64,000 nt of DNA from Nostoc sp. (GTDB lineage Bacteria > Cyanobacteriota > Cyanobacteriia > Cyanobacteriales > Nostocaceae), in contig JBALDB010000060.1 in the NCBI GenBank assembly GCA_036918135.1, positions 2,045 to 66,044 of the forward strand, in the 5' to 3' direction. Both the position numbers and the translations under genes were made by a program. Below are positions 9,067 through 40,281 of the stretch, piece after piece (positions within the stretch are counted from its first letter, which is position 1; each line of letters starts with the position of its first letter). The notes beneath the pieces were generated by a model. It saw only the letters and a list, made by a program, of their open reading frames with translations. It was not told the DNA's origin and made no database searches.

Positions 9067-10350
9067 ATGTCAATGGTTACTTTACCTGGATTAAAAGAAT
9101 TAATTGAAAGTATTAGTCGCGAGCGCAATTTACCTCGTCTTGCAGTTCAATCAGCTATCAGAGAAGCACTACTCAAAGGTTACGAACGTTACCGTCGCGC
9201 TCAAAATTTAGAACGCAGGCAGTTTGATGAAGATTATTTTGATAATTTTGAAGTAGAACTCGATATTGAAGGAGAAGGATTTCGCGTTCTTTCTACTAAA
9301 ACTATTGTCGAAGAAGTCAATAACACAGACCATCAAATTTCTCTAGACGAAGTTCAACTAGTAGCTCCAGAAGCGCAGTTAGGGGATTCCGTGGTGCTGG
9401 ATGTGACGCCCGATCAAGGTGAATTTGGTCGCATGGCTGCTATGCAAACCAAGCAAGTACTAGCGCAAAAACTTCGGGATCAACAGCGCCAAATGGTGCA
9501 AGAAGAGTTTCAAGACTTAGAAGGAACTGTCCTACAAGCAAGAGTCCTGCGGTTTGAACGTCAATCAGTAATTTTGGCAGTTAGCAGTGGCTTTGGTCAG
9601 CCAGAAGTGGAAGCTGAATTACCAAAGCGCGAACAGCTACCTAACGATAACTATCGGGCAAATGCCACTTTCAAGGTATATCTTAAAAAAGTTTCCCAAG
9701 GTCAGCAACGAGGACCGCAGTTACTAGTATCTAGAGCAGATGCTGGTTTAGTAGTTTATCTATTTGCTAATGAAGTACCAGAAATCGAAGACGAAGTAGT
9801 ACGGATTGTTGCCGTAGCTAGGGAGGCAAACCCCCCTTCCCGTTATGTAGGTCCCCGGACTAAAATAGCAGTAGATACTCTCGATCGCGATGTAGACCCA
9901 GTTGGTGCATGTATCGGAGCTCGGGGTTCGCGAATTCAAGTAGTAGTCAACGAATTACGTGGTGAAAAAATAGATGTAATTCGCTGGTCGCCAGACCCAG
10001 CAACATATATCGCTAATGCTTTGAGTCCGGCGCGGGTAGATGAAGTCCGCCTGATGGATCCAGAAACTCGCCAAACTCACGTACTAGTGGCTGAAGATCA
10101 ACTCAGCTTAGCTATTGGCAAGGAAGGACAAAATGTCCGTTTGGCAGCCCGCTTAACAGGCTGGAAAATTGATATCAAAGACAAAGCTAAGTACGACCAT
10201 GCAGGCGAAGATGCTAAATTTCTAGCTTCTAGAGCCAAATATCAAGCAGAGGAAGATGATATTGATGATTTTGAAGAATTAGATGCCGAAAATCAAGAGG
10301 AATTAGAAGAATTAGATGATGATACTTTTGAACCTGAGGATGATAAATAA
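9067..10350 (+). CDS. nusA: Transcription termination/antitermination factor NusA
   Basis: FGRMAAMQTKQV, S1 domain, DPVGACIGARGSRI, LSLAIGKEGQNVRLAARLTGWKIDI; SD AAAGGAG upstream of ATG 9067. Confidence 0.98.
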   Translation: MSMVTLPGLKELIESISRERNLPRLAVQSAIREALLKGYERYRRAQNLERRQFDEDYFDNFEVELDIEGEGFRVLSTKTIVEEVNNTDHQISLDEVQLVAPEAQLGDSVVLDVTPDQGEFGRMAAMQTKQVLAQKLRDQQRQMVQEEFQDLEGTVLQARVLRFERQSVILAVSSGFGQPEVEAELPKREQLPNDNYRANATFKVYLKKVSQGQQRGPQLLVSRADAGLVVYLFANEVPEIEDEVVRIVAVAREANPPSRYVGPRTKIAVDTLDRDVDPVGACIGARGSRIQVVVNELRGEKIDVIRWSPDPATYIANALSPARVDEVRLMDPETRQTHVLVAEDQLSLAIGKEGQNVRLAARLTGWKIDIKDKAKYDHAGEDAKFLASRAKYQAEEDDIDDFEELDAENQEELEELDDDTFEPEDDK

Positions 10351-10498
10351 TTTATTAAAATTGTAAAGTATTGTTAAAGTTGATTTGAGCCATAATCTCA
10401 AGGATTTTTCGTGGAGGACAGTTGGTATAAGTAAAAAATAGTAATAACTAACTTGTTTCTATACTTTAAATGCAGAACTGAGATCCTACACAAAACCA

Positions 10499-10768
10499 AT
10501 GAAACCAAATTATCGGCGCTGTATCAGCTGCCGCAAACTAGGTTTAAAAGATGAGTTTTGGCGGATTGTACGCGTCTTTCCATCGGGGAAGGTACAATTA
10601 GATCGGGGCATGGGGCGTTCTGCCTATATTTGTCCGCAAGCGAGTTGCCTACAAGCAGCTCAAAGGAAAAATCGACTAGGGCGATCGCTACATGCATCAG
10701 TGCCACAAACGCTGTACCAAAGCTTGTTGCAACGTCTAGATACCAGTAATACCCAAAATCAAATTTAA
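10499..10768 (+). CDS. ylxR: YlxR/DUF448 family RNA-binding protein
   Basis: RRCISCR and GRSAYIC motifs; canonical position between nusA and infB. Confidence 0.92.
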   Translation: MKPNYRRCISCRKLGLKDEFWRIVRVFPSGKVQLDRGMGRSAYICPQASCLQAAQRKNRLGRSLHASVPQTLYQSLLQRLDTSNTQNQI

Positions 10769-11272
10769 GTAGTTGGAACAACTTAGTAGCGTTATCAGCA
10801 GAGAAATTGTAGTAAAGCCGAACTACTCGTGCTTTTTTCATATCCTCTGTCGATCGTTAGGGTTAGTGCCAAAATAGTAAATGGGTGTAGAAAGCATTCG
10901 GCTCTTCGATAAAAAGAAGGGCAGGGCAATACTCCCAGAACAAAATGTACTCGATTGTGTTGTGGAAGACTCAGAATCAGCAAAACAAAAAACAGCAAAA
11001 CAAAAAACTACAAAATGGCAACCTGGTAGCGCTCAGGTGCAGTTCGGCGTCAAGGGTGACCATAAAAATCTTTTATTTAAAAAATTTTTATGGGTATCTC
11101 TCAACCATCATTCCTGGTGGGGATGCCATTATTAAACCGAAACATCTCTCTTTCCTGATTGGAGGCACCGGCAAAATCACCAAGGGCAACCTAAAAACAG
11201 TAATCAAAGGATGGAGATGTCGCACTCCCAGGCAGCCATCCGCTAAAACTGTAAATTAAAGGGGAAGAGTGG

Positions 11273-14200
11273 ATGAACAACGGCAAAGTTAGAATCTATG
11301 AATTATCAAAGGAATTGAATTTGGATAACAAAGAGCTACTAGCAATTTGCGACCAGCTCAACATTGCGGTCAAAAGCCATAGCAGCACGATTTCAGAATC
11401 CGAGGCAGAACAGATTCGCACTGCTGCACAAAAACTCGCAGCTACAAATGTAATGCCTAAAAAGGAACTAAGTACAACCGGTCAAAAACCAAATTCACAA
11501 GCAAACGGCGGACCTGCGCGACCTGCTGCACCCCACAAACAGCAAATTTTGGAAATACGTAAGCCCAAAATATTGAGAAACACTACTTCCAACGCCCCAG
11601 AGGCGTCAGTTGCTACCAATACACAAGCTGCTTTGTCTGAAGCTAATCCTCCCTCACCTCCACGGCCTTTCGCTACACCAGTCTCACCCATGAAGCCGAC
11701 GGCACCAATTCGACCTGTACCCCGGAATCAATCTGAGACCCCAGAGCAACCTGCTGTCAAAGACTTGGAACAAACGCATAGTCAAAATCAGCCACAGGAA
11801 AAAACAGTTGCCCAAAAACCAGAAAAAGTAATTCCACCCAGACCGAAATCGGAAAAACCTCAAAAACCGCAATTAGTTGCGCCACCAGCAAGACCTGCGG
11901 CGGAACAACCCCAGACCGAGCAGCAATCTCCGGCTGACAAACCGATTCTCAAACGCGAACGTCCACGGCCTACAGAAGGCGATCGCGACCATCAAATTAA
12001 GCCAAAAGTTGCTAAGCTGCCAACTGAGCAAACTCCACAAGCTGCACCACAAAAACAGCCTCGTCCCACCCCTTCACCTGTAAAACCGGAGCAAAGAGGG
12101 ACGACGAATAGACCATCAGCACCATCACCAATAGGTGATGGGCAACGACCTCGACCCGCACGTCCTGGTGAAGCCGTAGCAGCAGCAATGCCTATCGCTA
12201 CTCCACCAAGACACATGTCAACAACAGTAGCGAAATCTGAGGTATTAGGTGACGAACCAATCGCCCCCGATCTCCTCGATTTGAAACGCCCAACTCCGCC
12301 TCGACCAGCCAAAGGCGGTAAAAAGTGGGTAGAAGAAGAAATCATTGACGAAGTCAAAGAGAAAGCAGGTAAGGCCGGCGTTAAAGGCAAGCGGGTCAAG
12401 CCAATACTTCTGGATGATGAAGAATTTGAAGACGATTTGCTCGATGATGAGGATTTAGACGCACCAGCCACCGTCCAAGTTAGTCTTTCCATCGCTCGTC
12501 CCCCCAAACCTAAAGCGACTCGACCGACGACACAAGCTCCGGTAGCGACAGCTCTAGCTAGCGCTCCAACAGCAAGAACTAAAAAATCTAGTTCCAACCG
12601 CGACCAAAATCGTCGCCAAGAAGTCGAAACCAAGCGCGAGCGTCCGGAAAAAGTTGTGGTCACAGGGCCAATGACAGTCCAAGAATTAGCTGACCTCTTG
12701 GCCATTGCTGATACAGAGATTGTGAAAATCCTGTTCCTCAAAGGTATGGCAGTGAGTATCACGCAAAATCTTGATATTCCGACAATTACCCTGGTAGCAA
12801 AAGAACTAGAAGTAGAAGTCGAAACCGCCGAACCAGAAGCAGAAGCTCGCAAAGTTACGGAAATGGTCAGCGTCGAAGACCTAGAAAATCTCCATCGACG
12901 TCCGCCAGTAGTGACAATTATGGGTCACGTAGACCACGGTAAAACAACCCTGCTCGACTCGATTCGTAAGACCAAAGTAGCTGCGGGCGAAGCTGGTGGT
13001 ATTACTCAACATATCGGTGCATACCATGTGGATGTAATACATGAAGGAAACCCTCAGCAGATAGTGTTCCTAGATACTCCCGGCCACGAAGCGTTTACAG
13101 CTATGCGGGCACGAGGAGCGCGGGTAACAGATATTGCAGTGTTAGTAGTAGCTGCGGATGATGGCGTTCGTCCCCAAACCATTGAAGCAATTAGCCATGC
13201 TCAAGCAGCAGGAGTGCCAATTGTCGTCGCTATCAACAAAATTGACAAAGAAGCTGCACAGCCAGACCGGGTGAAACAAGAACTCACCCAGTATGGTCTA
13301 ACAGCAGAAGAATGGGGTGGTGACACAATCATGGTACCGGTGAGCGCCATCAAAGGCGAAAACCTAGATACGCTCTTAGAAATGATCCTCTTGGTAGCAG
13401 AGGTAGCAGAACTATCTGCTAACCCAGACCGGGCTGCTAGAGGAACCGTCATTGAAGCACATCTGGATAAAGCCAAGGGAGCAGTTGCTACTCTACTGAT
13501 TCAGAATGGCACCTTGCATGTAGGAGATATGCTAGTAGCCGGCTCCGCCTTTGGTAAGGTACGGGCAATGGTGAATGATAGAGGCGCAAGAGTTGATGTC
13601 GCCTCTCCATCCTTTGCGGTTGAGGTGTTGGGCTTAAGTGATGTCCCAGCAGCAGGCGATGAGTTCGAGGTCTTCGAGAACGAAAAAGAAGCCAGAAGCC
13701 TAGCAAGCGATCGCGCCGACAAACAACGCCTATCCCGCTTATTACAAGGACGTGTCACCCTCACAACCCTCTCGGCTCAAGCACAAGAAGGCGAGTTGAA
13801 AGAACTCAACCTGATCTTGAAAGGAGACGTGCAAGGTTCTGTGGAAGCCATTGTCGGAGCGCTCAAGCAAATCCCTCAAAACGAAGTCCAAATTCGGATG
13901 CTATTGGCTACTGCCGGCGAAATTACCGAAACAGATATCGATTTAGCATCTGCTAGTAACGCTGTGATTATTGGCTTCAACACTACCTTCGCTAGTGGTG
14001 CCAGACAAGCCGCTGACGAAGCAGGTGTAGATGTTCGGGAATACAACGTCATCTATAAACTCCTAGAAGATATCCAAGATGCTTTGGAAGGTCTTCTCGA
14101 ACCAGAGTTGGTAGAAGAACCCTTGGGTCAAACCGAAGTTCGTGCCGTCTTCCCAGTTGGTCGTGGTGCCGTTGCTGGTTGCTACGTTCAATCTGGCAAG

Positions 14201-32446: not shown

Positions 32447-32998
32447 TTCAACAATCATCATAAAGTGCCTTATACTCTCACGTTAACGCACCTTGTATCT
32501 TATTAAGCAGTGCGTTACGCTCATAGCCATAATCGGATAATTTATTTTTGAAAGTCTTTAAGTTTGGGTATCCAAATCATTGCTCAAAGCATATTACCCA
32601 TAAAAATGCACTCCAGATTTAGCAAAGATATGGCATGGGTAATTCTGAAAATTTTTGAATAATTATGAAGCGCATTTTTCAGAGAATTTTGGTATGAAAG
32701 ACAGTCTAAAGTCTTACTCTCAGTTTTTAGAGATTTAGTTTTAATAAATACAAATTTTTGTTAGCATTATAACAATAACCATACATAGAGCAAGCAGGCA
32801 AAACCTTTGCTCTATTTCTTATATATTCAATATTTTGATGTAGATATTTAACTCTACACTAACAATTTTGTCTATTTATTTTTTTAATTTATAACCTCTA
32901 AAAGTTTGATAAAATTCAGTGTCATTACTGAAATATTTTACAGAAGTAATGGTTATATTGATAACGCAAAGAGAAACAACACAAGGAGTTTGTTAATC

Positions 32999-33424
32999 AT
33001 GAAAATCTCTGCAATTCTCAAAGGAAGCATTTTTGTATTAGGTTTAGTTAGTGTTGGTAATATCCTGTCTGCGCCAGCAAATGCAGGTCAAGCCGCAGCT
33101 CGTGGTGCTGCAACTATTGTTAGAGCTTCAGGTGCTTCTGTAAGTGTTAGTGGTGAATTAACCTTACCTCAAAATGCTTTCTTTCCCGGCCCTTTAACAG
33201 TCACACCGACTTACGATGGTGCAGCAGCTACAGACGATGAAACCATACTTAGCTTAGAAGTAGACCCAGGCACACCCGATGTTACTGCACTCTCTACTAG
33301 CAGCAGCAGTAATCCATTCGTTCAGGCAGCCGCAGATGCTTTAACCGCTGCTACTGACGTTGGGTCACAAGCAGCTCTCATTCGCGCTGGTGCTGGTGCT
33401 AATGGTTTAGGCGGTTTAGAATAG
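32999..33424 (+). CDS. Secreted small Ala/Gly/Ser/Thr-rich protein, paralog 1 (putative fibre subunit)
   Basis: SD AGGAG at 32984-32988; 29-aa Sec signal ending APANA; 112-aa mature chain; tail IRAGAGANGLGGLE. Function is inference. Confidence 0.85.
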   Translation: MKISAILKGSIFVLGLVSVGNILSAPANAGQAAARGAATIVRASGASVSVSGELTLPQNAFFPGPLTVTPTYDGAAATDDETILSLEVDPGTPDVTALSTSSSSNPFVQAAADALTAATDVGSQAALIRAGAGANGLGGLE

Positions 33425-33551
33425 ATTGAATTTTGCTTTGTAAGTACTTACTGAATTTTTAGCAATTAAGAGAACAGCTGAATAAATCTATAGATAATAG
33501 GGAAGACAAATTGCAATGCTATGTCTGTTCCCTATATTTATTTTGTGGCTC

Positions 33552-33585
33552 AGATTCCCGACTTTTTATAGGAAGTCGGGAATCT
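33552..33585. terminator. Perfect 13-bp hairpin between the two paralogs (dispersed repeat or terminator)
   Basis: AGATTCCCGACTT-tttatagg-AAGTCGGGAATCT. Confidence 0.65.
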
Positions 33586-33987
33586 TGTTGTATGGGTCTT
33601 TCGTAGGGTTATATAGCTGTGTACCCCTACTTTGTTTTGCATACTCTGATACACAGATTAAATTTTTATTTAACACATCAAGAAATTGAATGAAAGCGTT
33701 GGTGATTTGCTATAGCAATCTGGAATCATCTCTTTACATAGCTTTATAAACTCTAAAACACTTATTAAATAATAAATAGAGCGTTTGTGTAATAATACGC
33801 ACACTAAAAATGTCCATTGTTAACAAAACTTTCATATCAAAGATTATATATTTTTATCTGCAAAAAGCAATAAAAGAAATATAAAGAAAAGTTTCATCTC
33901 GACTTTTGCTAGTGGAGTTGAAGTTTGCATTTTCAATGCAATATTGGGGAACAAGCTAAGGTAAAAATATCAGGAGTTTTATAAATT

Positions 33988-34419
33988 ATGAGTAGCTTAT
34001 CTAAAAAATTATCTATAATTCTTCAGCGAAGTATTTGCTTGTTAGGTTTAATGAGTGCTGGAAATTTTTTAGCAGTGCCAGCAAATGCACAACAAGCTAG
34101 TGCTGTTGGTGCTGTTAGTCTAATTAGACCTTCTGGTACTTTTTTGAGTGTGAGTGGTCAAGTAATTTTACCTTCTGGGTTTTATTTTGATGGAGGTTTA
34201 CAAATTACACCTACCTATGCAGGTATAGCAGGCACAAATGAGGAAACTGTTACTAGTCTGACAATAACCCCAGGAATAGTTAAAACTACTACAGTCTCTT
34301 CCCCAAATTCGTTTGTTAATACAGCAGCAAACTTATTAAATGATAGTACTTCGGTTGAAAATGTGACAACTATAATCCGAGCAGGTGCTGGTAATAATGG
34401 CTTAGGTGCTTTAGATTAG
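33988..34419 (+). CDS. Secreted small protein, paralog 2 (putative fibre subunit)
   Basis: SD AGGAG at 33972-33976; 34-aa signal ending VPANA; 109-aa mature chain, 52/112 aligned positions identical to paralog 1; tail IRAGAGNNGLGALD. Confidence 0.85.
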   Translation: MSSLSKKLSIILQRSICLLGLMSAGNFLAVPANAQQASAVGAVSLIRPSGTFLSVSGQVILPSGFYFDGGLQITPTYAGIAGTNEETVTSLTITPGIVKTTTVSSPNSFVNTAANLLNDSTSVENVTTIIRAGAGNNGLGALD

Positions 34420-34489
34420 ACAGAATTTATAAATTAACACTTTTAGATGCTCAACTTTATAAATAAGTTGGGTATCTTGCATACTAAAA

Positions 34490-37402
34490 TTAAAATCTAT
34501 AACCACCTTGAAACTTCAGGTCAAAGCCATTTTCACCTGTACCAATCTGACTTTCTATAAATACACCATTATCAGGAAAAGTATGCCGGAAAATTAGTCC
34601 ATAATTGAAGCCAGAAACTCGATTATCTAAACCAATATTATTAACACTATAATTTCTTAAATAAGCACCAAGAGAAATTCTTTTACTAATTCTTCGCAAC
34701 CCTTGAAACTCAAAGAATAATTCTTTACCAATCTCTAGGCTTGTTTTAAAATTTAAACCTTGGCTAGTACCAAATTCTCCATTAAAAAGACCTAATAATT
34801 CACCATTACTATTATCTTGAATATAAGCGATACCAGGAGCTAAGGAAAAGCCAAAGTTTCTTTCTTGATGTTGAAAGAAATAACTTAAGAAGGTGGAAAA
34901 AGGATTATTTTTATTAGATGCACTATTCCAGTCAATTCTTAAGTAGGGTATATGAGTATTAATAGCTACAGGTTTTTTATTTGAATTTAAACGTACATCA
35001 GTTTTAATATAATTGAGAAGTATACCAGCATATATACCTATAGTTGGTTCTTCTATTCCGAAATTATTATTAGAAACGCCTGGTGCTGAGTTAGCGTCTA
35101 TATTAAACCAGGTTCCCAAGTTAGCACTATAGTTAAAATTCCCAGAAGAACCTGCTGCTAATAATTCGATTGTGGGTAAAGAAAGATAACCGTTAAAGTT
35201 ATTAAAACTAATACTAATTTTATCAACTCTAGTGAGTTCCATATAATCGAACGCTAAATCAGATGACCTGACTTGAAGCGGTACTATCGTATTATCGGCT
35301 GAACTAAATTGCTGTACAAATTGTTGCCCTTGCGAGTTTGTCAAAATTACTTCTACAGCAGAAGATTCGTTAATCGGATCGATAGAAGTATCTTTTAAAG
35401 GAATTGGGATACCGATAAAAGTCAGAGGGCCAAACTTTTCATTAGAAAGTCTGAGGTCAGAAAAAAATGTATCACCTTCATTTAAGATAGAAATATTTCT
35501 TTCTAAAAACTGAACTGCTCGTTTATGGTTTCCGGTTCTTACTTGTAAGATACTCGACTTGTTAGGAGTAATTTTACTTGGAAGTGTATAAGTTCCAGAT
35601 ACTTGCTCTAGTCCACTGCCTGCATTAGCATAAGCTAAAGTGCGATTCAATCTGTTATTAATTTGTCTTCTTTGCTCGGCTGTTGCAGGTGTATTTAAAG
35701 GAGTAAAACCTTCTCCCTTCTTAAATTTTTCTCTAGCTTCTTGTAAACCTTGTTGAATATTATTAATTTTAATAGCTTCAAAAACCTCACCTAACAGCAA
35801 ACCTAATGTAGAATTCAGTGATTGAGTAGAATTAATACTAAAATCACTAAATTTAGCGGTTATAGATATGCCTGGAGCAGAAAAAATATTAGAGAAAGTA
35901 GCCTTAACATTTGTTGGGTCATATTGGATTAAGCTGCGATTATGAGGACGGCTAACATAGAGTCTATGCCAATATGAATTGTCTTGAGTTTGAGATAGTG
36001 TTTCAAACTCAGGTTGTCTTCTTCCTAAAGATAGCCACTGTAAAGAGTTAAGATAATGAAAGTCTTTCTCCGATTGAGAAAGAAAAGGATTGACTGCTAC
36101 ATTTAACAAATCAAAATTATCGAATTTTCCAAGTTGAGCAACTTTAATACCTGGAAAGGAAGAAACAGGAGCAGTAAAACCGAAACCTTTTCCGGTTAAT
36201 ATATCTCCCCAAAAAATTCCAGCAGCTTCAAGGGCATTTTTTGGAATTATTTCGCCAACTTGAAGTTTAACGTTTCCATCATCTAGCAAAGGTTGCAGAT
36301 TTGTTGTGGGAAAGCCTTGCAGAATCTTAGGAGCATTGGTAGCATCTAAAGCTTGAAATAAAGCTTGTCCACCATCAACACTCAAAGTTGAGCCACTACC
36401 AATTTTTGGTATAGGATTTTTGAGAACTGTGACATTAGGGTTATTTAAATCAACACCACTATTAATAATAACTCTGCCAGCAGGTATACCTTCTGGATTT
36501 ATTAATTGTCCTGCTATTGTGGTTATAGAAAAATTATTGGTAGCAACTTCTCCATCTAAATTCTGAAAATCAGTAGGTATGGCAAACAGAGATTGCAATC
36601 CCCAAAATGCTTGCTGTGAAGTAACATTTTGGGTGATATAAGTATTAGTTTCTCTTCCTTGAGAAAGGATACCTACTTGAGAGCCTTTGGTTTCAACTAC
36701 TACCCTGTTGTTGTCGAGAACCCAGTAAAACTGATCGTGTTTAGGAAATTTAGCATAAGTAAATTTATTAATAATCTGATTGTCGTCAGAAAATCTTATC
36801 CTGATATCTGTATCTATATAATTTTCTTCATGATTTGGTTTAAATAATTGAGTTTGAAAAGTAAGATTATCTGTAGGGTTAACAATCCAAGGGTATTTAT
36901 TGGCGCTAAATGTCAGAGCATCAAGAATTATTTCTTTTTGTTTTGCTTGTTGTTGCTTTTTTGTTCGACGTAGTTTTTCTATAAGTATTTGTTGTGTTGG
37001 CGTATATTGTTGAGTTCTATTTAGTTGAGGTTCTTGTCGTTCTCGCTCGTCTGGGTTGGGAGGTTGTACTTTATATTCTTCAATTGGGATAACATCAGCT
37101 ATAGTGAATTGGCGTAATTTATTTGGTTTTTGGAAGTTAGTTTTAGTATTTTTTAAGGCGTGTATTAACAGTGCTTGGCTTCGAGAACTGTCTATTTTAT
37201 TGTCCTGATTAGTAGTAATTAAATTAACATTATTTTGAGTGGTTAGGTCTAAGGCGATCGCACATGCTTCTTTTAATAAAATTTTGCCTAAAATTATGGA
37301 AAATAATAAACACAATCCAATAATTTTTACCTTTTCTCTGAATCTCAATAGGGAGATATCGATAGTTATTTGAATCGAAATGGAAACTTTTAATATTTTC
37401 AC
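34490..37402 (-). CDS. Large exported protein with C-terminal outer-membrane beta-barrel (autotransporter-like architecture)
   Basis: N-terminal hydrophobic signal-like stretch (IIGLCLLFSIILG..ACAIA); about 12 amphipathic aromatic strands in the last ~215 aa; terminal GFDLKFQGGYRF fits the BAM beta-signal. GTG start uncertain. Confidence 0.75.
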   Translation of the reverse strand: MKILKVSISIQITIDISLLRFREKVKIIGLCLLFSIILGKILLKEACAIALDLTTQNNVNLITTNQDNKIDSSRSQALLIHALKNTKTNFQKPNKLRQFTIADVIPIEEYKVQPPNPDERERQEPQLNRTQQYTPTQQILIEKLRRTKKQQQAKQKEIILDALTFSANKYPWIVNPTDNLTFQTQLFKPNHEENYIDTDIRIRFSDDNQIINKFTYAKFPKHDQFYWVLDNNRVVVETKGSQVGILSQGRETNTYITQNVTSQQAFWGLQSLFAIPTDFQNLDGEVATNNFSITTIAGQLINPEGIPAGRVIINSGVDLNNPNVTVLKNPIPKIGSGSTLSVDGGQALFQALDATNAPKILQGFPTTNLQPLLDDGNVKLQVGEIIPKNALEAAGIFWGDILTGKGFGFTAPVSSFPGIKVAQLGKFDNFDLLNVAVNPFLSQSEKDFHYLNSLQWLSLGRRQPEFETLSQTQDNSYWHRLYVSRPHNRSLIQYDPTNVKATFSNIFSAPGISITAKFSDFSINSTQSLNSTLGLLLGEVFEAIKINNIQQGLQEAREKFKKGEGFTPLNTPATAEQRRQINNRLNRTLAYANAGSGLEQVSGTYTLPSKITPNKSSILQVRTGNHKRAVQFLERNISILNEGDTFFSDLRLSNEKFGPLTFIGIPIPLKDTSIDPINESSAVEVILTNSQGQQFVQQFSSADNTIVPLQVRSSDLAFDYMELTRVDKISISFNNFNGYLSLPTIELLAAGSSGNFNYSANLGTWFNIDANSAPGVSNNNFGIEEPTIGIYAGILLNYIKTDVRLNSNKKPVAINTHIPYLRIDWNSASNKNNPFSTFLSYFFQHQERNFGFSLAPGIAYIQDNSNGELLGLFNGEFGTSQGLNFKTSLEIGKELFFEFQGLRRISKRISLGAYLRNYSVNNIGLDNRVSGFNYGLIFRHTFPDNGVFIESQIGTGENGFDLKFQGGYRF

Positions 37403-37737: not shown

Positions 37738-39195
37738 ATGTTTCAGGCTACTCGCCGCCGTCTGGCAATTTGGTACACCGCTGTGACTGCCGTATTACTA
37801 CTACTGTTTGCCAGTGGCGTTTATTTATACGTCCGCAGTACACTGATTGAGCGGATTGACGATACTCTTAACCACGTAGTGGAAGTAGTAGAGCGATGTT
37901 TAACAACAAGCCCCTGTGCGTCTAGACTCATCATTGAGCCAGTCAATTCCGACGCTGATAAATTTCGCATTAATGTAGAGGCGAGTTTTCCCGACAATGC
38001 CGACAGCACAGAAGATGACCACATCGACCTAGAATGGTTTAGTCCCACCGGTGAGTTAATTTGGTCAACGCTATCCGAACCCCTAAATATTCCCATTTAT
38101 GCCAACCGCACTGGTGAAACCGTCCGCGTAGTCAAAGCAAAAAAAGACCGAGATGATAAATTCACCATTCCCCACTCGCCACTTTTATTGCGACAAGTTA
38201 CACAACGGGTGGAAGTGGGACGCCAAGTATTAGGATATCTGCGTGTTAGCCATCCTTGGTTTGAAGTTGCAAAACCCAGTCGTCAATTAATTTTTGATTT
38301 GGCGCTAGGTATTGGGTTAATGCTGGTTTCTGTAGCAGCAAGTGGCTGGTTTCTTTCAGGTAAAGCTATGGAACCAGTAGGTGAGTCCTACCAACGCCTG
38401 AAACAATTTACTGCCGATGCTTCTCATGAATTGAGAAGTCCTATTACTTTGATTCAAACCAATGTGCAAGTTGCACTTGCTGACTTGGAGTTAGCAGAAG
38501 CAGAAACTACTACTTCTGTGCAATATCGCCAACAGTTAAAAATAGTAGAACGATTAACACAGCGTTTAGGTAAGTTAGTCAATGATTTACTCTTCCTCGC
38601 AAGGCAGGATAGTGGTATCAGCAAAGATACCTTTGCACCTTGTCCCTTGGACGCCTTGCTAATGGAAGTGGTTGAAGAACAACAATTGTTAGTTCCTGAA
38701 AAACAAATCGCCTTGACTTTAGACTTAATCGATCCTCCCGCTTCGGAAACTAGTCCCGAATTACTAGAAAATTGGTTTACACTTGTGGGCAATTGGGATC
38801 AGCTGGTGCGACTATTCACAAATTTGATTGCGAATGCCTTGCATTACACACCAGCAGGTGGACGAGTGAAAGTAGAATTGGCGCGGATAGAAGGAATAAA
38901 TCGTGTTTCTGGACGACGTTACACCAGTGCCCAGTTGCAAGTTAAAGTCATTGATACTGGAGTCGGAATTCCAGCAGAGGCACTACCGCACTTATTTGAC
39001 CGCTTTTATCGAGTAGATCCGGCACGTACTCATCGGACTGGAAATACAGTCAAAGCCAGCGCTACTGGTTCGGGATTGGGATTAGCGATCGCTGCTGCTA
39101 TTGTCGAATATCACCAAGGTTATATTCAAGTTGAAAGTACCCAAGGTATTGGTACAACCTTTGCCGTAATTTTACCGATAACTCTTGAGTTTTAA
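37738..39195 (+). CDS. Two-component sensor histidine kinase (orphan, two TMs)
   Basis: RRRLAIWY-TM, periplasmic loop, TM, FTADASHELRSP H-box, NLIANALHY, DTGVGI, FDRFYRVD, GSGLGLAI. Confidence 0.95.
   Translation: MFQATRRRLAIWYTAVTAVLLLLFASGVYLYVRSTLIERIDDTLNHVVEVVERCLTTSPCASRLIIEPVNSDADKFRINVEASFPDNADSTEDDHIDLEWFSPTGELIWSTLSEPLNIPIYANRTGETVRVVKAKKDRDDKFTIPHSPLLLRQVTQRVEVGRQVLGYLRVSHPWFEVAKPSRQLIFDLALGIGLMLVSVAASGWFLSGKAMEPVGESYQRLKQFTADASHELRSPITLIQTNVQVALADLELAEAETTTSVQYRQQLKIVERLTQRLGKLVNDLLFLARQDSGISKDTFAPCPLDALLMEVVEEQQLLVPEKQIALTLDLIDPPASETSPELLENWFTLVGNWDQLVRLFTNLIANALHYTPAGGRVKVELARIEGINRVSGRRYTSAQLQVKVIDTGVGIPAEALPHLFDRFYRVDPARTHRTGNTVKASATGSGLGLAIAAAIVEYHQGYIQVESTQGIGTTFAVILPITLEF
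37897..37926 (+). repeat. Small dispersed repeat in frame inside the histidine kinase (encodes CLTTSPCASR)
   Basis: TGTTTAACAACAAGCCCCTGTGCGTCTAGA, 24/30 identical to the minus-strand segment 56301-56272. Confidence 0.75.
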
Positions 39196-39537: not shown

Positions 39538-40281
39538 ATGGTTAATAAGTCTCATAATTTTCGTAAATCCGCTGAGTTATTTGGTACTCTTTGCGGAGGA
39601 CTACTGCTTAGCCTGCCAGTAATTCCTCAAGCACTAGCACAACAATCTATTAGCCAACAACAATCTACTGGTCAAGTTAATCCTTGTCCTCGGATTTTCT
39701 ACGAAGAACCACATAACTCTCGCGTTATCGTACCTCAAGGATGTCCTCCTAATGCGCTAACCCAAAGATTAGCAGCCCAAGGGCTTCTTCCCGTCCCTGC
39801 GACTCCATCACCACAGCAAGCACAATTAGGTGTGGGCGGTGAAACATCTCTAGTACCTCCACAAGCAGGTACTGTACCACCCGTAATTCCCCCAGTCCAA
39901 GGACAAGTACCTTCTGTGCCATCACAATCAGGTACTACAGTACCAGTAGAACAACGACAAACCCCCAGCGCTACAATCGCACTGGCAAATGGTAAACTTA
40001 ATATTAGATTAGTAAATCAGACTGCGGCAAATATAACTTACCAAGTTATTGGTGATACAGCACCGCGATCGCTCCAAGGAAAATCCGATACCACACTCCA
40101 AAATCTAAGCGCACCAATAACGGTAACATTTGAACGACAAGATGGCGGACAATTAATAGTCACTCCCCAAGCCTCATCAGAGCCAGGAAACTTGGAAGTT
40201 ACATTTAACGAAGCCACTAATGCGGTTCAAGGCAGAAGTGCCATGAGAATTGAACGAAGTGGTTCTGTATATTTAAATTAA
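39538..40281 (+). CDS. Secreted protein of unknown function
   Basis: SD AGGAG; signal peptide ending ALA; Cys pair (VNPCP..QGCPPN), Pro/Gln linker, beta-rich C-terminal domain. Confidence 0.85.
   Translation: MVNKSHNFRKSAELFGTLCGGLLLSLPVIPQALAQQSISQQQSTGQVNPCPRIFYEEPHNSRVIVPQGCPPNALTQRLAAQGLLPVPATPSPQQAQLGVGGETSLVPPQAGTVPPVIPPVQGQVPSVPSQSGTTVPVEQRQTPSATIALANGKLNIRLVNQTAANITYQVIGDTAPRSLQGKSDTTLQNLSAPITVTFERQDGGQLIVTPQASSEPGNLEVTFNEATNAVQGRSAMRIERSGSVYLN

Follow-up and report, generated by a model that had tools for sequence, protein, structure and literature searches.

A cyanobacterial gene module pairing small Sec-type secreted proteins with a large putative outer-membrane beta-barrel protein

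The window, by which we mean the whole stretch of 64,000 nucleotides of Nostoc sp. DNA analyzed here, carries a two-family module that is specific to cyanobacteria and matches no described family. Two tandem genes for small exported proteins converge on the gene of a large exported protein that, judging from its predicted structure, looks like an outer-membrane beta-barrel. In the model that we prefer, and to which we give about even credence, this barrel is dedicated to its neighbours and exports or anchors the cognate small proteins. Each small protein carries a Sec-type leader that is unusually conserved and would be cut off after A-x-A, leaving a domain of about 110 aa. This domain begins with a conserved beta-hairpin (GAVTIVRPSGSSxSVSGE..LP), varies in its middle and closes with a helical part that finishes IRAGAG..GL[E/D]-COOH. 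The large protein would form a big beta-barrel in the outer membrane, with its N-terminal linker and helix in the periplasm, and would receive the small proteins from the periplasm and then either export them or retain them at the surface of the cell. The candidate features for recognition are the conserved hairpin of the small proteins and their free [L/M][E/D] C-terminus; we infer both this signal and the direction of cargo movement. In hormogonium-forming Nostoc, the module belongs to the SigJ/SigC developmental programme of motile filaments, and the likely place of action of its product is therefore the filament surface, or the slime and medium.

Small A (32999..33424, forward strand; 141 aa) and small B (33988..34419, forward strand; 143 aa) are real genes, each with an SD before its ATG (AAGGAG at 32983-32988 and AGGAG at 33972-33976, respectively), and yield mature chains of 112 and 109 aa. 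PANA closes both leaders, of which that of small A occupies residues 1-29; the leader reads MKISAILKGSIFVLGLVSVGNILSAPANA, cut before GQ, and its pattern is kept in all family members. These open reading frames, SDs and leaders, like the exported protein of 970 aa whose stop lies 70 bp from that of small B, are as the initial annotation described them, and its view that the small genes are paralogous is borne out by 69/140 identities (BLASTP, E = 1e-42). Proteins exported by Sec and SPase I have a basic n-region, a hydrophobic h-region and an A-x-A cleavage site, and from their leaders both small proteins appear to be of this class. The mature chains of A and B are free of Cys and rich in A, G, S and T; Cys pairs are present in multi-repeat forms of the family. 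The C-terminal [L/M][E/D]-COOH occurs in 144 of 146 unique small proteins. Of the two paralogs, small A lies distally and is variable, whereas small B lies proximally and is conserved; by position, their orthologs are Npun_F5190 and Npun_F5191, respectively. The B type is more widespread than A and is the sole small gene in several Nostoc loci, while A-type proteins change about five times faster in the middle than in the leader (dN 0.49 vs 0.10). The position, variability and spread of the two paralogs at most hint at the major and minor subunit roles of the earlier proposal.

In the AF2 monomer model (pLDDT 72.7), small A is compact, with four strands and 2-3 helices; the core reaches pLDDT 80-89, and residues 1-27 remain below 50. 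The model has no structural match in the PDB, pilins included, no internal repeats were found within the 110-aa domain, and no Pfam or NCBIfam match was obtained among 31 + 10 diverse members. Type IV pilins are defined by a G|F..E prepilin site and a long N-terminal helix, and PEP-CTERM, LPXTG and GlyGly-CTERM proteins by a C-terminal sorting domain with a transmembrane helix. The small proteins belong to none of these classes: the prepilin E5, a predicted N-terminal helix and a C-terminal hydrophobic segment are all absent, and the chains end ...GL[E/D].

The non-coding flanks of small A are also conserved. Aligned with five orthologous loci, among them the region upstream of Npun_F5190, the promoter region (32919..32966, forward strand) has a mean column identity of 81%; it contains an upstream motif (GTGTCATTACTGAAA, 32919-32933, forward strand) and a -10-like TATATT (32954-32959, forward strand). 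Transcription would start near 32966, a position transferred inexactly by orthology. The 3'UTR (33425..33600, forward strand), 79% identical across 5 loci with one compensatory pair, ends in a strong hairpin (stem core 33552-33585; fold dG -25.5 kcal/mol, z -5.9), which a terminator scan also picked up and which is likely to be a terminator or mRNA stabiliser.

The large gene (34490..37402, reverse strand) encodes 970 aa when read from GTG 37402. The start is probably TTG 37348 (MRFREKVKIIGL...), giving 952 aa, because the N. punctiforme ortholog, Npun_R5192 (80% identical), begins MRFKKNLK, aligned to residue 19. A signal peptide (MRFREKVKIIGLCLLFSIILGKILLKEACA) is followed by a disordered linker rich in Q, N, P and K (about 46-135), a helix (136-174) and a beta region. 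About 35 strands are predicted by AF2 in residues 194-969, broken by a mixed domain (302-454) and a helical insert (518-597); pLDDT is 76 overall and mostly 85-95 across the C-terminal half. The beta-stranded end and terminal Phe noted by the initial annotation are thus found again, in a C-terminal GGYRF that resembles the outer-membrane beta-signal (34493..34507, reverse strand) and in which F970 is an invariant column of the family alignment. Outer-membrane beta-barrels as a class start with a signal peptide, cross the membrane with an all-beta region and finish in a C-terminal beta-signal whose last residue is aromatic, and the modelled large protein conforms to this general description, which suggests that it resides in the outer membrane. 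Its significant Foldseek matches are exclusively outer-membrane barrels, with best TM-scores <= 0.39. One homolog, P0213, bears a PG_binding_1 domain at its N-terminus, and the N-terminus of the large protein is therefore placed in the periplasm.

The initial annotation had expected the small and the large family to occur together, and they do so across cyanobacteria, almost always side by side. Among 151 Nostocaceae genomes, both families are present in 27, the small one alone in none, the large one alone in 7 and neither in 117 (Fisher p = 1e-23); two of the seven bear divergent small genes beside the large gene. The families are genetically linked: in named genomes spanning Nostoc, Scytonema, Rivularia, Anabaena, Dolichospermum, Snowella, Pseudanabaena, Leptolyngbya and Phormidium, a small-domain gene lies <7 kb from the large gene in 69 of 80 loci. 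About six of the other 11 are truncated contigs, and five are complete-looking loci in which no small gene is recognisable near the large gene, one of them with a pseudogene remnant. Gene orders are convergent, divergent or, in Pseudanabaena and relatives, small-small-large on one strand, and this variety points to selection on proximity rather than inherited synteny. Each locus has 1-5 small genes, and in unicellular taxa the small domain also occurs as tandem fusions (2x, 4x, 5x). No third conserved gene was found in 103 loci, nor any conserved neighbouring chaperone, sortase, polymerase, polysaccharide or lipid gene. As the initial annotation supposed, neither family maps to a characterised one: comparisons of sequence and fold with Pfam, NCBIfam and the PDB gave no match.

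Data from N. punctiforme, in which Npun_F5190/F5191/R5192 have the same gene order as in the window, connect the module with hormogonia. Both Npun_F5190 (cluster 10, sigJ regulon, motif GTAWTTTTRCKGDKK) and Npun_R5192 (under sigC) are listed among the hormogonium 'Upregulated promoters' (PMC6495340 Data Set S2A). The secretion of the small proteins that had been claimed accords with the abundance of the small A ortholog in cell-free hormogonium medium, a 0.2-um-filtered, 16,000 g supernatant (PMC12188702): Npun_F5190 has a summed intensity of 1.2e10 with only 3 theoretical peptides and is supported by only 2 peptides, and Npun_R5192 peptides are present about 100 times below it, whereas the B-type ortholog Npun_F5191 is absent from the listing (PMC12188702 Data Set S1). 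The presence of Npun_F5190 there is no proof of active secretion, because the exoproteome is heavily contaminated by lysis (ApcB 1.6e11, GlnA 1.3e11). The periplasm-like neighbour Npun_F5194 is equally abundant in the medium (PMC12188702 Data Set S1).

Upstream of the large gene lies an RppB-like sensor histidine kinase (37738..39195, forward strand; HisKA + HATPase_c), which scores 270 bits against NF041735, below the cut-off of 400. The suggestion that it regulates the module finds no support: it and the large gene are neighbours in 41 of 103 loci, nearly all from Nostoc and close relatives, which is synteny at the Nostoc level only, and the orthologs of the module genes belong to the SigJ and SigC regulons. 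The kinase is a neighbour outside the conserved core.

Several known systems resemble the module in layout. In the Fap and curli systems (FapB/FapC with FapF; CsgB/CsgA with CsgG), as here, small Cys-free Sec-exported paralogs, one abundant and variable and the other conserved, are encoded beside a dedicated outer-membrane channel. The order of signal peptide, linker, helix and barrel in the large protein resembles that of FapF, and there is a weak Foldseek match to FapF (5o68, E 0.014, TM 0.28). Curli and Fap are characterised by imperfect Q/N-rich repeat subunits, a CsgG lipoprotein channel or a 12-strand FapF barrel, and accessory genes. The module differs from them in that it has no sequence or profile similarity to either, its small proteins are predicted to be globular alpha/beta domains without imperfect amyloid repeats, its barrel protein is 3-4 times larger than FapF and, unlike CsgG, no lipoprotein, and CsgE/F and FapA/D/E genes are absent. 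Chaperone-usher systems comprise an usher (PF00577), a PapD-like periplasmic chaperone and Ig-like pilins missing the last strand. In them, too, a large outer-membrane barrel is accompanied by small secreted subunits whose N-terminal beta segment is conserved, and PapC and FimD are among the weak Foldseek matches of the large protein; no usher or chaperone model matches, no locus contains a PapD-like chaperone gene, and the small-protein model shows no incomplete Ig-like fold. The initial annotation recognised no pilin, curli, usher or two-partner motif, and none of the corresponding models matches at E <= 1.

In two-partner secretion (type Vb: TpsB/ShlB/FhaC with TpsA), too, an outer-membrane beta-barrel gene is paired with the gene of its own Sec-dependent substrate. 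TpsB is a ShlB-type 16-strand barrel (PF03865) preceded by POTRA domains, and TpsA is a large exoprotein that begins with a TPS (haemagglutination activity) domain. The large protein has no POTRA domains and no Pfam match at E <= 10, whole or in halves; PF03865 finds three genuine TpsB genes elsewhere in the genome (E 1e-26 to 1e-33), not this one, and hhalign gives a probability of 0.2% against a cyanobacterial TpsB profile. The small proteins, with 109-112 mature residues and no Pfam/NCBIfam match, are domains of 110 aa rather than beta-helices of >1000 aa with a TPS domain. The submitters of two large-family homologs named them 'hemolysin activator HlyB C-terminal domain-containing protein'; these two have no Pfam match at E <= 10. 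The LptD-LptE pair shares with the module a very large barrel that follows an N-terminal periplasmic part and adjoins a small sheet-plus-helices partner, and LptD structures are among the highest-probability Foldseek matches of the large protein. LptD combines OstA/LptD domains with a 26-strand barrel, which LptE, a lipoprotein, plugs; the pair is essential and universal in LPS-producing bacteria. No OstA/LptD model matches here, the TM-scores to LptD are <= 0.26, the small proteins are not lipoproteins and occur in 1-5 copies or 4-5x fusions, and the module is no essential LPS machine, because its distribution is patchy (26 of 401 cyanobacterial genomes).

The same observations could be read otherwise. 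The small proteins might be accessory subunits that act in the periplasm or lumen as plug, cap or pilot of a very large channel in the outer membrane, much as LptE does for LptD. The true cargo would then be something else, for example hormogonium polysaccharide, lipid or another polymer, and the small proteins would reach the medium by lysis or in vesicles. We consider this unlikely. Foldseek gives its top probabilities (0.96-0.99) to LptD among other barrels, and the small-protein model, a four-stranded sheet with 2-3 helices, is presumably LptE-like in a superficial way; the strong lysis in the exoproteome and the equal abundance of Npun_F5194 agree with this reading, as does the conservation of the large protein, which peaks in the N-terminal and central 500 aa and not in the C-terminal barrel. 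However, fusions of 4 and 5 domains in one chain and 1-5 gene copies at a locus are at odds with a 1:1 plug, and these features, together with the rapid divergence of the A-type middle, argue for cargo. Moreover, the small proteins have neither lipobox nor Cys, whereas LptE is a lipoprotein, the TM-scores to LptD are low, LptD/OstA models are unmatched, and the neighbourhood lacks conserved polysaccharide or lipid genes. Another reading, in which the two paralogs supply the major and the minor subunit of an extracellular polymer, whether a pilus, a spina, an S-layer-like sheet or an amyloid, that is assembled on the barrel or anchored by it, is improbable. An abundant, variable A with a strong terminator hairpin and a conserved B beside the barrel gene do recall CsgA/CsgB and FapC/FapB, tandem fusions suggest units lying side by side, and conserved termini around a variable centre are also seen in pilins and flagellins. 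Nevertheless, the polymerisation claimed by the initial annotation gains no support from the monomer model, which is closed and globular, resembles no pilin and lacks a missing strand, a long N-terminal helix and internal amyloid repeats. Recovery of the ortholog from a filtered, centrifuged supernatant favours a soluble or easily shed protein, and no chaperone, sortase or polymerase is conserved nearby.

Two further readings separate the families from each other, and both are very improbable. According to one, the large protein exports itself as an adhesin in the manner of an autotransporter, its C-terminal barrel carrying a passenger of ~600-700 aa, and the small proteins are functionally separate neighbours. 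In the large protein a helical segment (525-595) precedes the C-terminal beta region, the last residue is Phe, and Npun_R5192 peptides occur in the medium. Classical autotransporters (type Va) have a C-terminal 12-strand beta-domain (PF03797) after a linker helix and a surface-exposed N-terminal passenger; here PF03797 and the passenger models are unmatched even at E <= 10, and the ~370 aa after the helical insert hold at least 20 strands, too many for a 12-strand barrel. The peptidoglycan-binding domain on the homolog places the N-terminus in the periplasm, and the strict linkage with the small family would be left unexplained. According to the other, which we rate lowest, two unrelated cyanobacterial orphan families are syntenic by chance without functional coupling. 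The adjacency in Nostoc indeed carries little weight, because the whole neighbourhood (ppk, the kinase and a 247-aa protein) is syntenic there. Against chance stand the 27/27 co-occurrence without a single small-only genome, an adjacency that holds across distant cyanobacterial families with rearranged orientation and unrelated flanks, and the hormogonium induction of orthologs of both genes.

The large gene has a GC content of 33.3%, compared with 40.4% for the window, and the spot counts given for the AT-rich locus are exact (0.30 at 34921-34980 and 0.50 at 13021-13140).

The locus consists of two small genes that converge on a single large gene. The small A ORF (32999-33424, + strand, 141 aa) and the small B ORF (33988-34419, + strand, 143 aa) encode paralogous secreted proteins, and the large ORF (34490-37402, - strand, 970 aa), which begins 70 bp past the small B stop, encodes a predicted outer-membrane beta-barrel, here called the large protein. 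The coordinates of the three ORFs and the 70-bp gap agree exactly with the initial annotation, as do the AGGAG-type ribosome-binding site that each small gene has of its own, the PANA sequence at the end of both leaders, and mature chains of 112 and 109 aa that lack Cys and are rich in Ala, Gly, Ser and Thr. Small A and small B are clear paralogs (69/140 identities, E = 1e-42). The GC spot counts are also reproduced exactly, the large gene being AT-rich (33.3% GC vs 40.4% for the window), and the genome has no small genes beyond these two and no second large gene. On sequence grounds, the TTG at 37348 is more likely to be the start of the large gene than the listed GTG at 37402, because the 80%-identical ortholog from Nostoc punctiforme begins with MRFKKNLK, aligned to residue 19; translation from the TTG yields a canonical signal peptide (MRFREKVK...). 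The GTG start (window 37346-37402) adds 18 residues that the orthologs lack, and the mapped transcription start of the N. punctiforme ortholog, Npun_R5192, precedes its ATG by no more than about 10-20 nt.

The small and large families are tightly linked. Among 151 Nostocaceae genomes, the small family is present in 27 and the large family in 34, and every small-family carrier (27/27) also has the large family, almost always with the two genes adjacent (Fisher p = 1e-23, a value that ignores phylogenetic non-independence). Of the seven genomes that seemed to have only the large family, two proved in an ORF-level search to carry divergent small genes next to the large gene, and in a third the large gene is surrounded by transposases. 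More widely, the large family occurs in 26/401 sampled cyanobacterial genomes, including unicellular lineages with genomes of 3-5 Mb, and its 80 named loci are confined to cyanobacteria: Nostoc (many of them lichen cyanobionts), Scytonema, Rivularia, Iningainema, Anabaena, Dolichospermum, Sphaerospermopsis, Geminocystis, Snowella, Leptolyngbya, Pseudanabaena, Phormidium and Thermosynechococcaceae. An iterated small-domain HMM places a small-domain gene within 7 kb of the large gene in 69 of these 80 loci; in about six of the misses the contig ends near the large gene, and one keeps a pseudogene fragment. The arrangement is convergent in Nostoc, co-directional in Scytonema (small gene upstream), operon-like (small-small-large) in Pseudanabaena and two related MAGs, and divergent in Dolichospermum-type loci. 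No third gene is conserved with the pair across loci. The histidine kinase, which the initial annotation had suggested as a possible regulator, is removed from the core, because it adjoins the module at Nostoc-level synteny only, as do ppk and a gene for a 247-aa protein.

Neither family could be assigned to a characterized one in Pfam, NCBIfam or the PDB, in keeping with the initial annotation. No Pfam or NCBIfam model matches small A, small B or the large protein at E <= 1, nor any of 28 large-family members or 41 small-family members (among them ten diverse ones that include the multi-domain forms); halves of the large protein gave no match even at E <= 10, and sequence-profile searches of the PDB returned nothing meaningful. 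When 1.84 billion representative proteins were searched exhaustively by HMM, only 76 clusters emerged, all of the large family: the full-length ones align over its whole conserved core, the remainder are fragments of it, and no cluster forms a bridge to a different family. The two families are also unrelated to each other (profile-profile probability 0.8%). The module is new in the sense that no known system, curated family or solved structure shows detectable homology to it; its mechanism is an inference.

TpsB was rejected as an identity for the large protein: the ShlB model detects three true TpsB genes at other places in the genome (E 1e-26 to 1e-33) and not the large protein, and a profile of cyanobacterial TpsB proteins matches the large family with a probability of only 0.2%. 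Models for ushers, CsgG, FapF, autotransporters and LptD do not match the large family either. Two database names were likewise set aside. 'Hemolysin activator HlyB C-terminal domain-containing protein', attached to the large-family proteins P0033 and P0054, is reproduced by no Pfam or NCBIfam HMM, and 'TEK-like protein', an NCBI name carried by small-family members of Anabaena, Dolichospermum and Sphaerospermopsis (P0280, P0281, P0285, P0341 and others), is explained by no such HMM and by no paper that was found.

In the AF2 model of the large protein (pLDDT 76.3), an N-terminal signal peptide is followed by a disordered Q/N/P/K-rich linker (residues ~46-135), a long helix (residues 136-174) and approximately 35 beta-strands (residues 194-969), which are interrupted by a mixed domain (residues 302-454) and a helical insert (residues 518-597). 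Foldseek matches only outer-membrane barrels (TbpA, LptD, BtuB, PapC, CdiB, TamA and FapF), and because all of these lie at TM-scores <= 0.39, the class of the protein is clear and the type of barrel is not. Mean-field co-variation over 257 large-family sequences (Meff 81) gave gap artefacts only. The stretch that precedes the conserved core is of low complexity and variable in length.

The small A model (pLDDT 72.7, core 80-89) runs from four strands into two or three helices and has no structural neighbor in the PDB (best Foldseek E 1.5). Conservation across the small family is highest in the leader (mean column entropy 0.68), followed by the N-terminal hairpin (0.85), the C-terminal part (1.42) and the middle (1.87). 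Motifs found phylum-wide are Q.AS.SG..T past the cleavage site, P.G...SV.GE..P.G..F, TVTP, an Ala-rich helix and, at the very end, I(I/V)(R/K)A.AG..GL(E/D). The chain ends in [L/M][E/D]-COOH in 144/146 distinct proteins, the two exceptions being a fragment and a protein with 19 extra residues past DGLE. The small-protein hairpin S(V/I)SGELTLP.G (residues 45-60) locally resembles FSI.SIAGQLINPEG in the large protein (residues 288-325, window 36427-36540), a resemblance to which hhalign gives no significance (E 0.07, probability 0.8%).

Nostocaceae loci have one to five separate small genes. Unicellular taxa encode single secreted chains of 255-642 aa in which the domain is repeated in tandem two, four or five times, the inserts bearing Cys pairs and the last repeat alone the terminal GLE (homologous loci L016:13577-15211, L017:12440-14029, L018:5660-7261, L089:1048-2976, and L019:12526-13293 and 9992-11359). 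The small genes of Nostoc form two orthologous groups, the A type being distal and the B type proximal; the B type is the one present in single-small-gene loci. The B type is uniformly conserved (dN 0.09-0.17), whereas the middle region of the A type is fast-evolving (dN 0.49 vs 0.10 in the leader); dN/dS exceeds 1 in no region of either type. Large genes encoding TPR and GT41 (O-GlcNAc-transferase-like) domains adjoin the small genes in four loci from two distant clades (L005:12093-14852, L006:1741-4437, L010:12213-16001 and the 5′ end of L011), or 4/13 of the loci examined first, window included. The window has no GT41 gene, those of this genome being on other contigs. These neighbors hint at glycosylation of the Ser/Thr-rich small proteins, as a lead only.

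The locus of N. punctiforme PCC 73102 has an identical order: Npun_F5190 (A position), Npun_F5191 (B type), Npun_R5192 (80% identical to the large protein), Npun_F5193 (kinase) and Npun_F5194. Both Npun_F5190 and Npun_R5192 are listed under 'Upregulated promoters', the former under the sigJ regulon (cluster 10, second motif GTAWTTTTRCKGDKK) and the latter under the sigC regulon (cluster 20) (Gonzalez et al., 2019; PMC6495340, Data Set S2A). Clusters 10 and 11 show dramatic hormogonium upregulation that is co-dependent on sigJ and sigC (PMC6495340). The region upstream of small A in the window is conserved with the Npun_F5190 promoter in the motif, the TATATT -10 element and the 5′UTR, so equal regulation is likely in this strain.

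In the hormogonium exoproteome, sampled as 0.2-um-filtered medium, Npun_F5190 was recorded with 2 peptides and a summed intensity of 1.23e10 and Npun_R5192 with 5 peptides and 1.4e8; Npun_F5191 is absent from the listing (PMC12188702). Npun_F5190 has only 3 theoretical peptides, and per theoretical peptide it is comparable to the major PEP-CTERM exoprotein Npun_F0770 (5.7e10 over 18 peptides) and within a few-fold of ApcB and GlnA, whose presence indicates substantial lysis. By this per-peptide intensity, the small A ortholog is very abundant in hormogonia and reaches the medium, where it is one of the more abundant proteins; its active secretion is likely, not proven. Replicate intensities were 7.0e9, 1.8e8 and 3.5e9 in the wild type and 1.7e9, 3.8e6 and 0 in the cyanoexosortase B mutant delta-crtB (PMC12188702, Data Set S1), lower in the mutant in 3/3 replicate pairs, a difference that the authors did not call significant (PMC12188702); Npun_F5190 has no PEP-CTERM domain. 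The Npun locus tags were not found in the main text of the papers or in further proteomics supplements. The secreted Pro/Gln-rich 247-aa protein (window 39538-40281) is syntenic with the module in Nostoc-like genomes only; its ortholog Npun_F5194 is abundant in the same exoproteome (7.1e9, 71% coverage; PMC12188702), and its UniProt name, 'AMIN domain-containing protein', is not reproduced by Pfam at E <= 1.

The best-supported reading, to which we give roughly even chances, is that the two families form a dedicated pair in which the barrel exports its cognate Sec-exported small-domain proteins or holds them at the surface. The main rival, in which the small proteins would serve as lumenal or periplasmic accessory subunits in a channel that handles some other substrate, is rather unlikely: the small domain's tandem fusions, the varying number of small genes, the variability of the A type in its middle region, the lack of lipidation and the finding of the small A ortholog in the medium all favor cargo over plug. 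The polymer of major and minor subunits envisaged by the initial annotation, with the barrel as translocator or anchor, could be a special case and is distinctly improbable, because the monomer model is globular and the module lacks any assembly factor. That the large protein is an autotransporter is very unlikely, because one homolog has a PG_binding_1 domain in its N-terminal region, which places the N-terminus in the periplasm and counts against a surface-exposed passenger. Mere adjacency of the small and large genes is the least credible explanation.

Extending the dedicated-pair reading, it may tentatively be proposed that the module is an undescribed, cyanobacteria-specific pathway of export or surface display, in which an unusually large single-chain barrel, possibly of 30 or more strands, would carry small Sec-exported cargo out to the surface of motile hormogonia or into their medium. 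The barrel, which would be unrelated to Omp85/TpsB, ushers, CsgG, FapF and secretins, might recognize its cargo by the conserved leader, the N-terminal beta-hairpin and the free C-terminal GL[E/D], and the delivered cargo could contribute to adhesion, gliding or host contact. Protein secretion across the cyanobacterial outer membrane is poorly understood, with few known routes beyond type I systems, type IV pili, T2SS-like secretins and PEP-CTERM/exosortase. A compact two-family module that is conserved from Pseudanabaena to Nostoc, and that the hormogonium sigma-factor cascade activates in N. punctiforme, a genetically tractable species, makes it testable by simple knock-outs whether cyanobacteria have a dedicated outer-membrane exporter for small proteins, and whether it has a part in motility, biofilm or symbiotic colonization. 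Many carriers of the module are lichen and plant cyanobionts.

Rfam gives no genuine match at the locus. The 3′UTR of small A (33425-33600) is approximately 79% identical across Nostoc loci, including that of N. punctiforme, and has several inverted repeats, ending with a strong 20-bp hairpin (dG -25.5 kcal/mol, z -5.9) in which one compensatory substitution occurs among orthologs. Because it is conserved beyond the needs of a simple terminator, this region may be an mRNA-stability element or a 3′UTR-derived small RNA.
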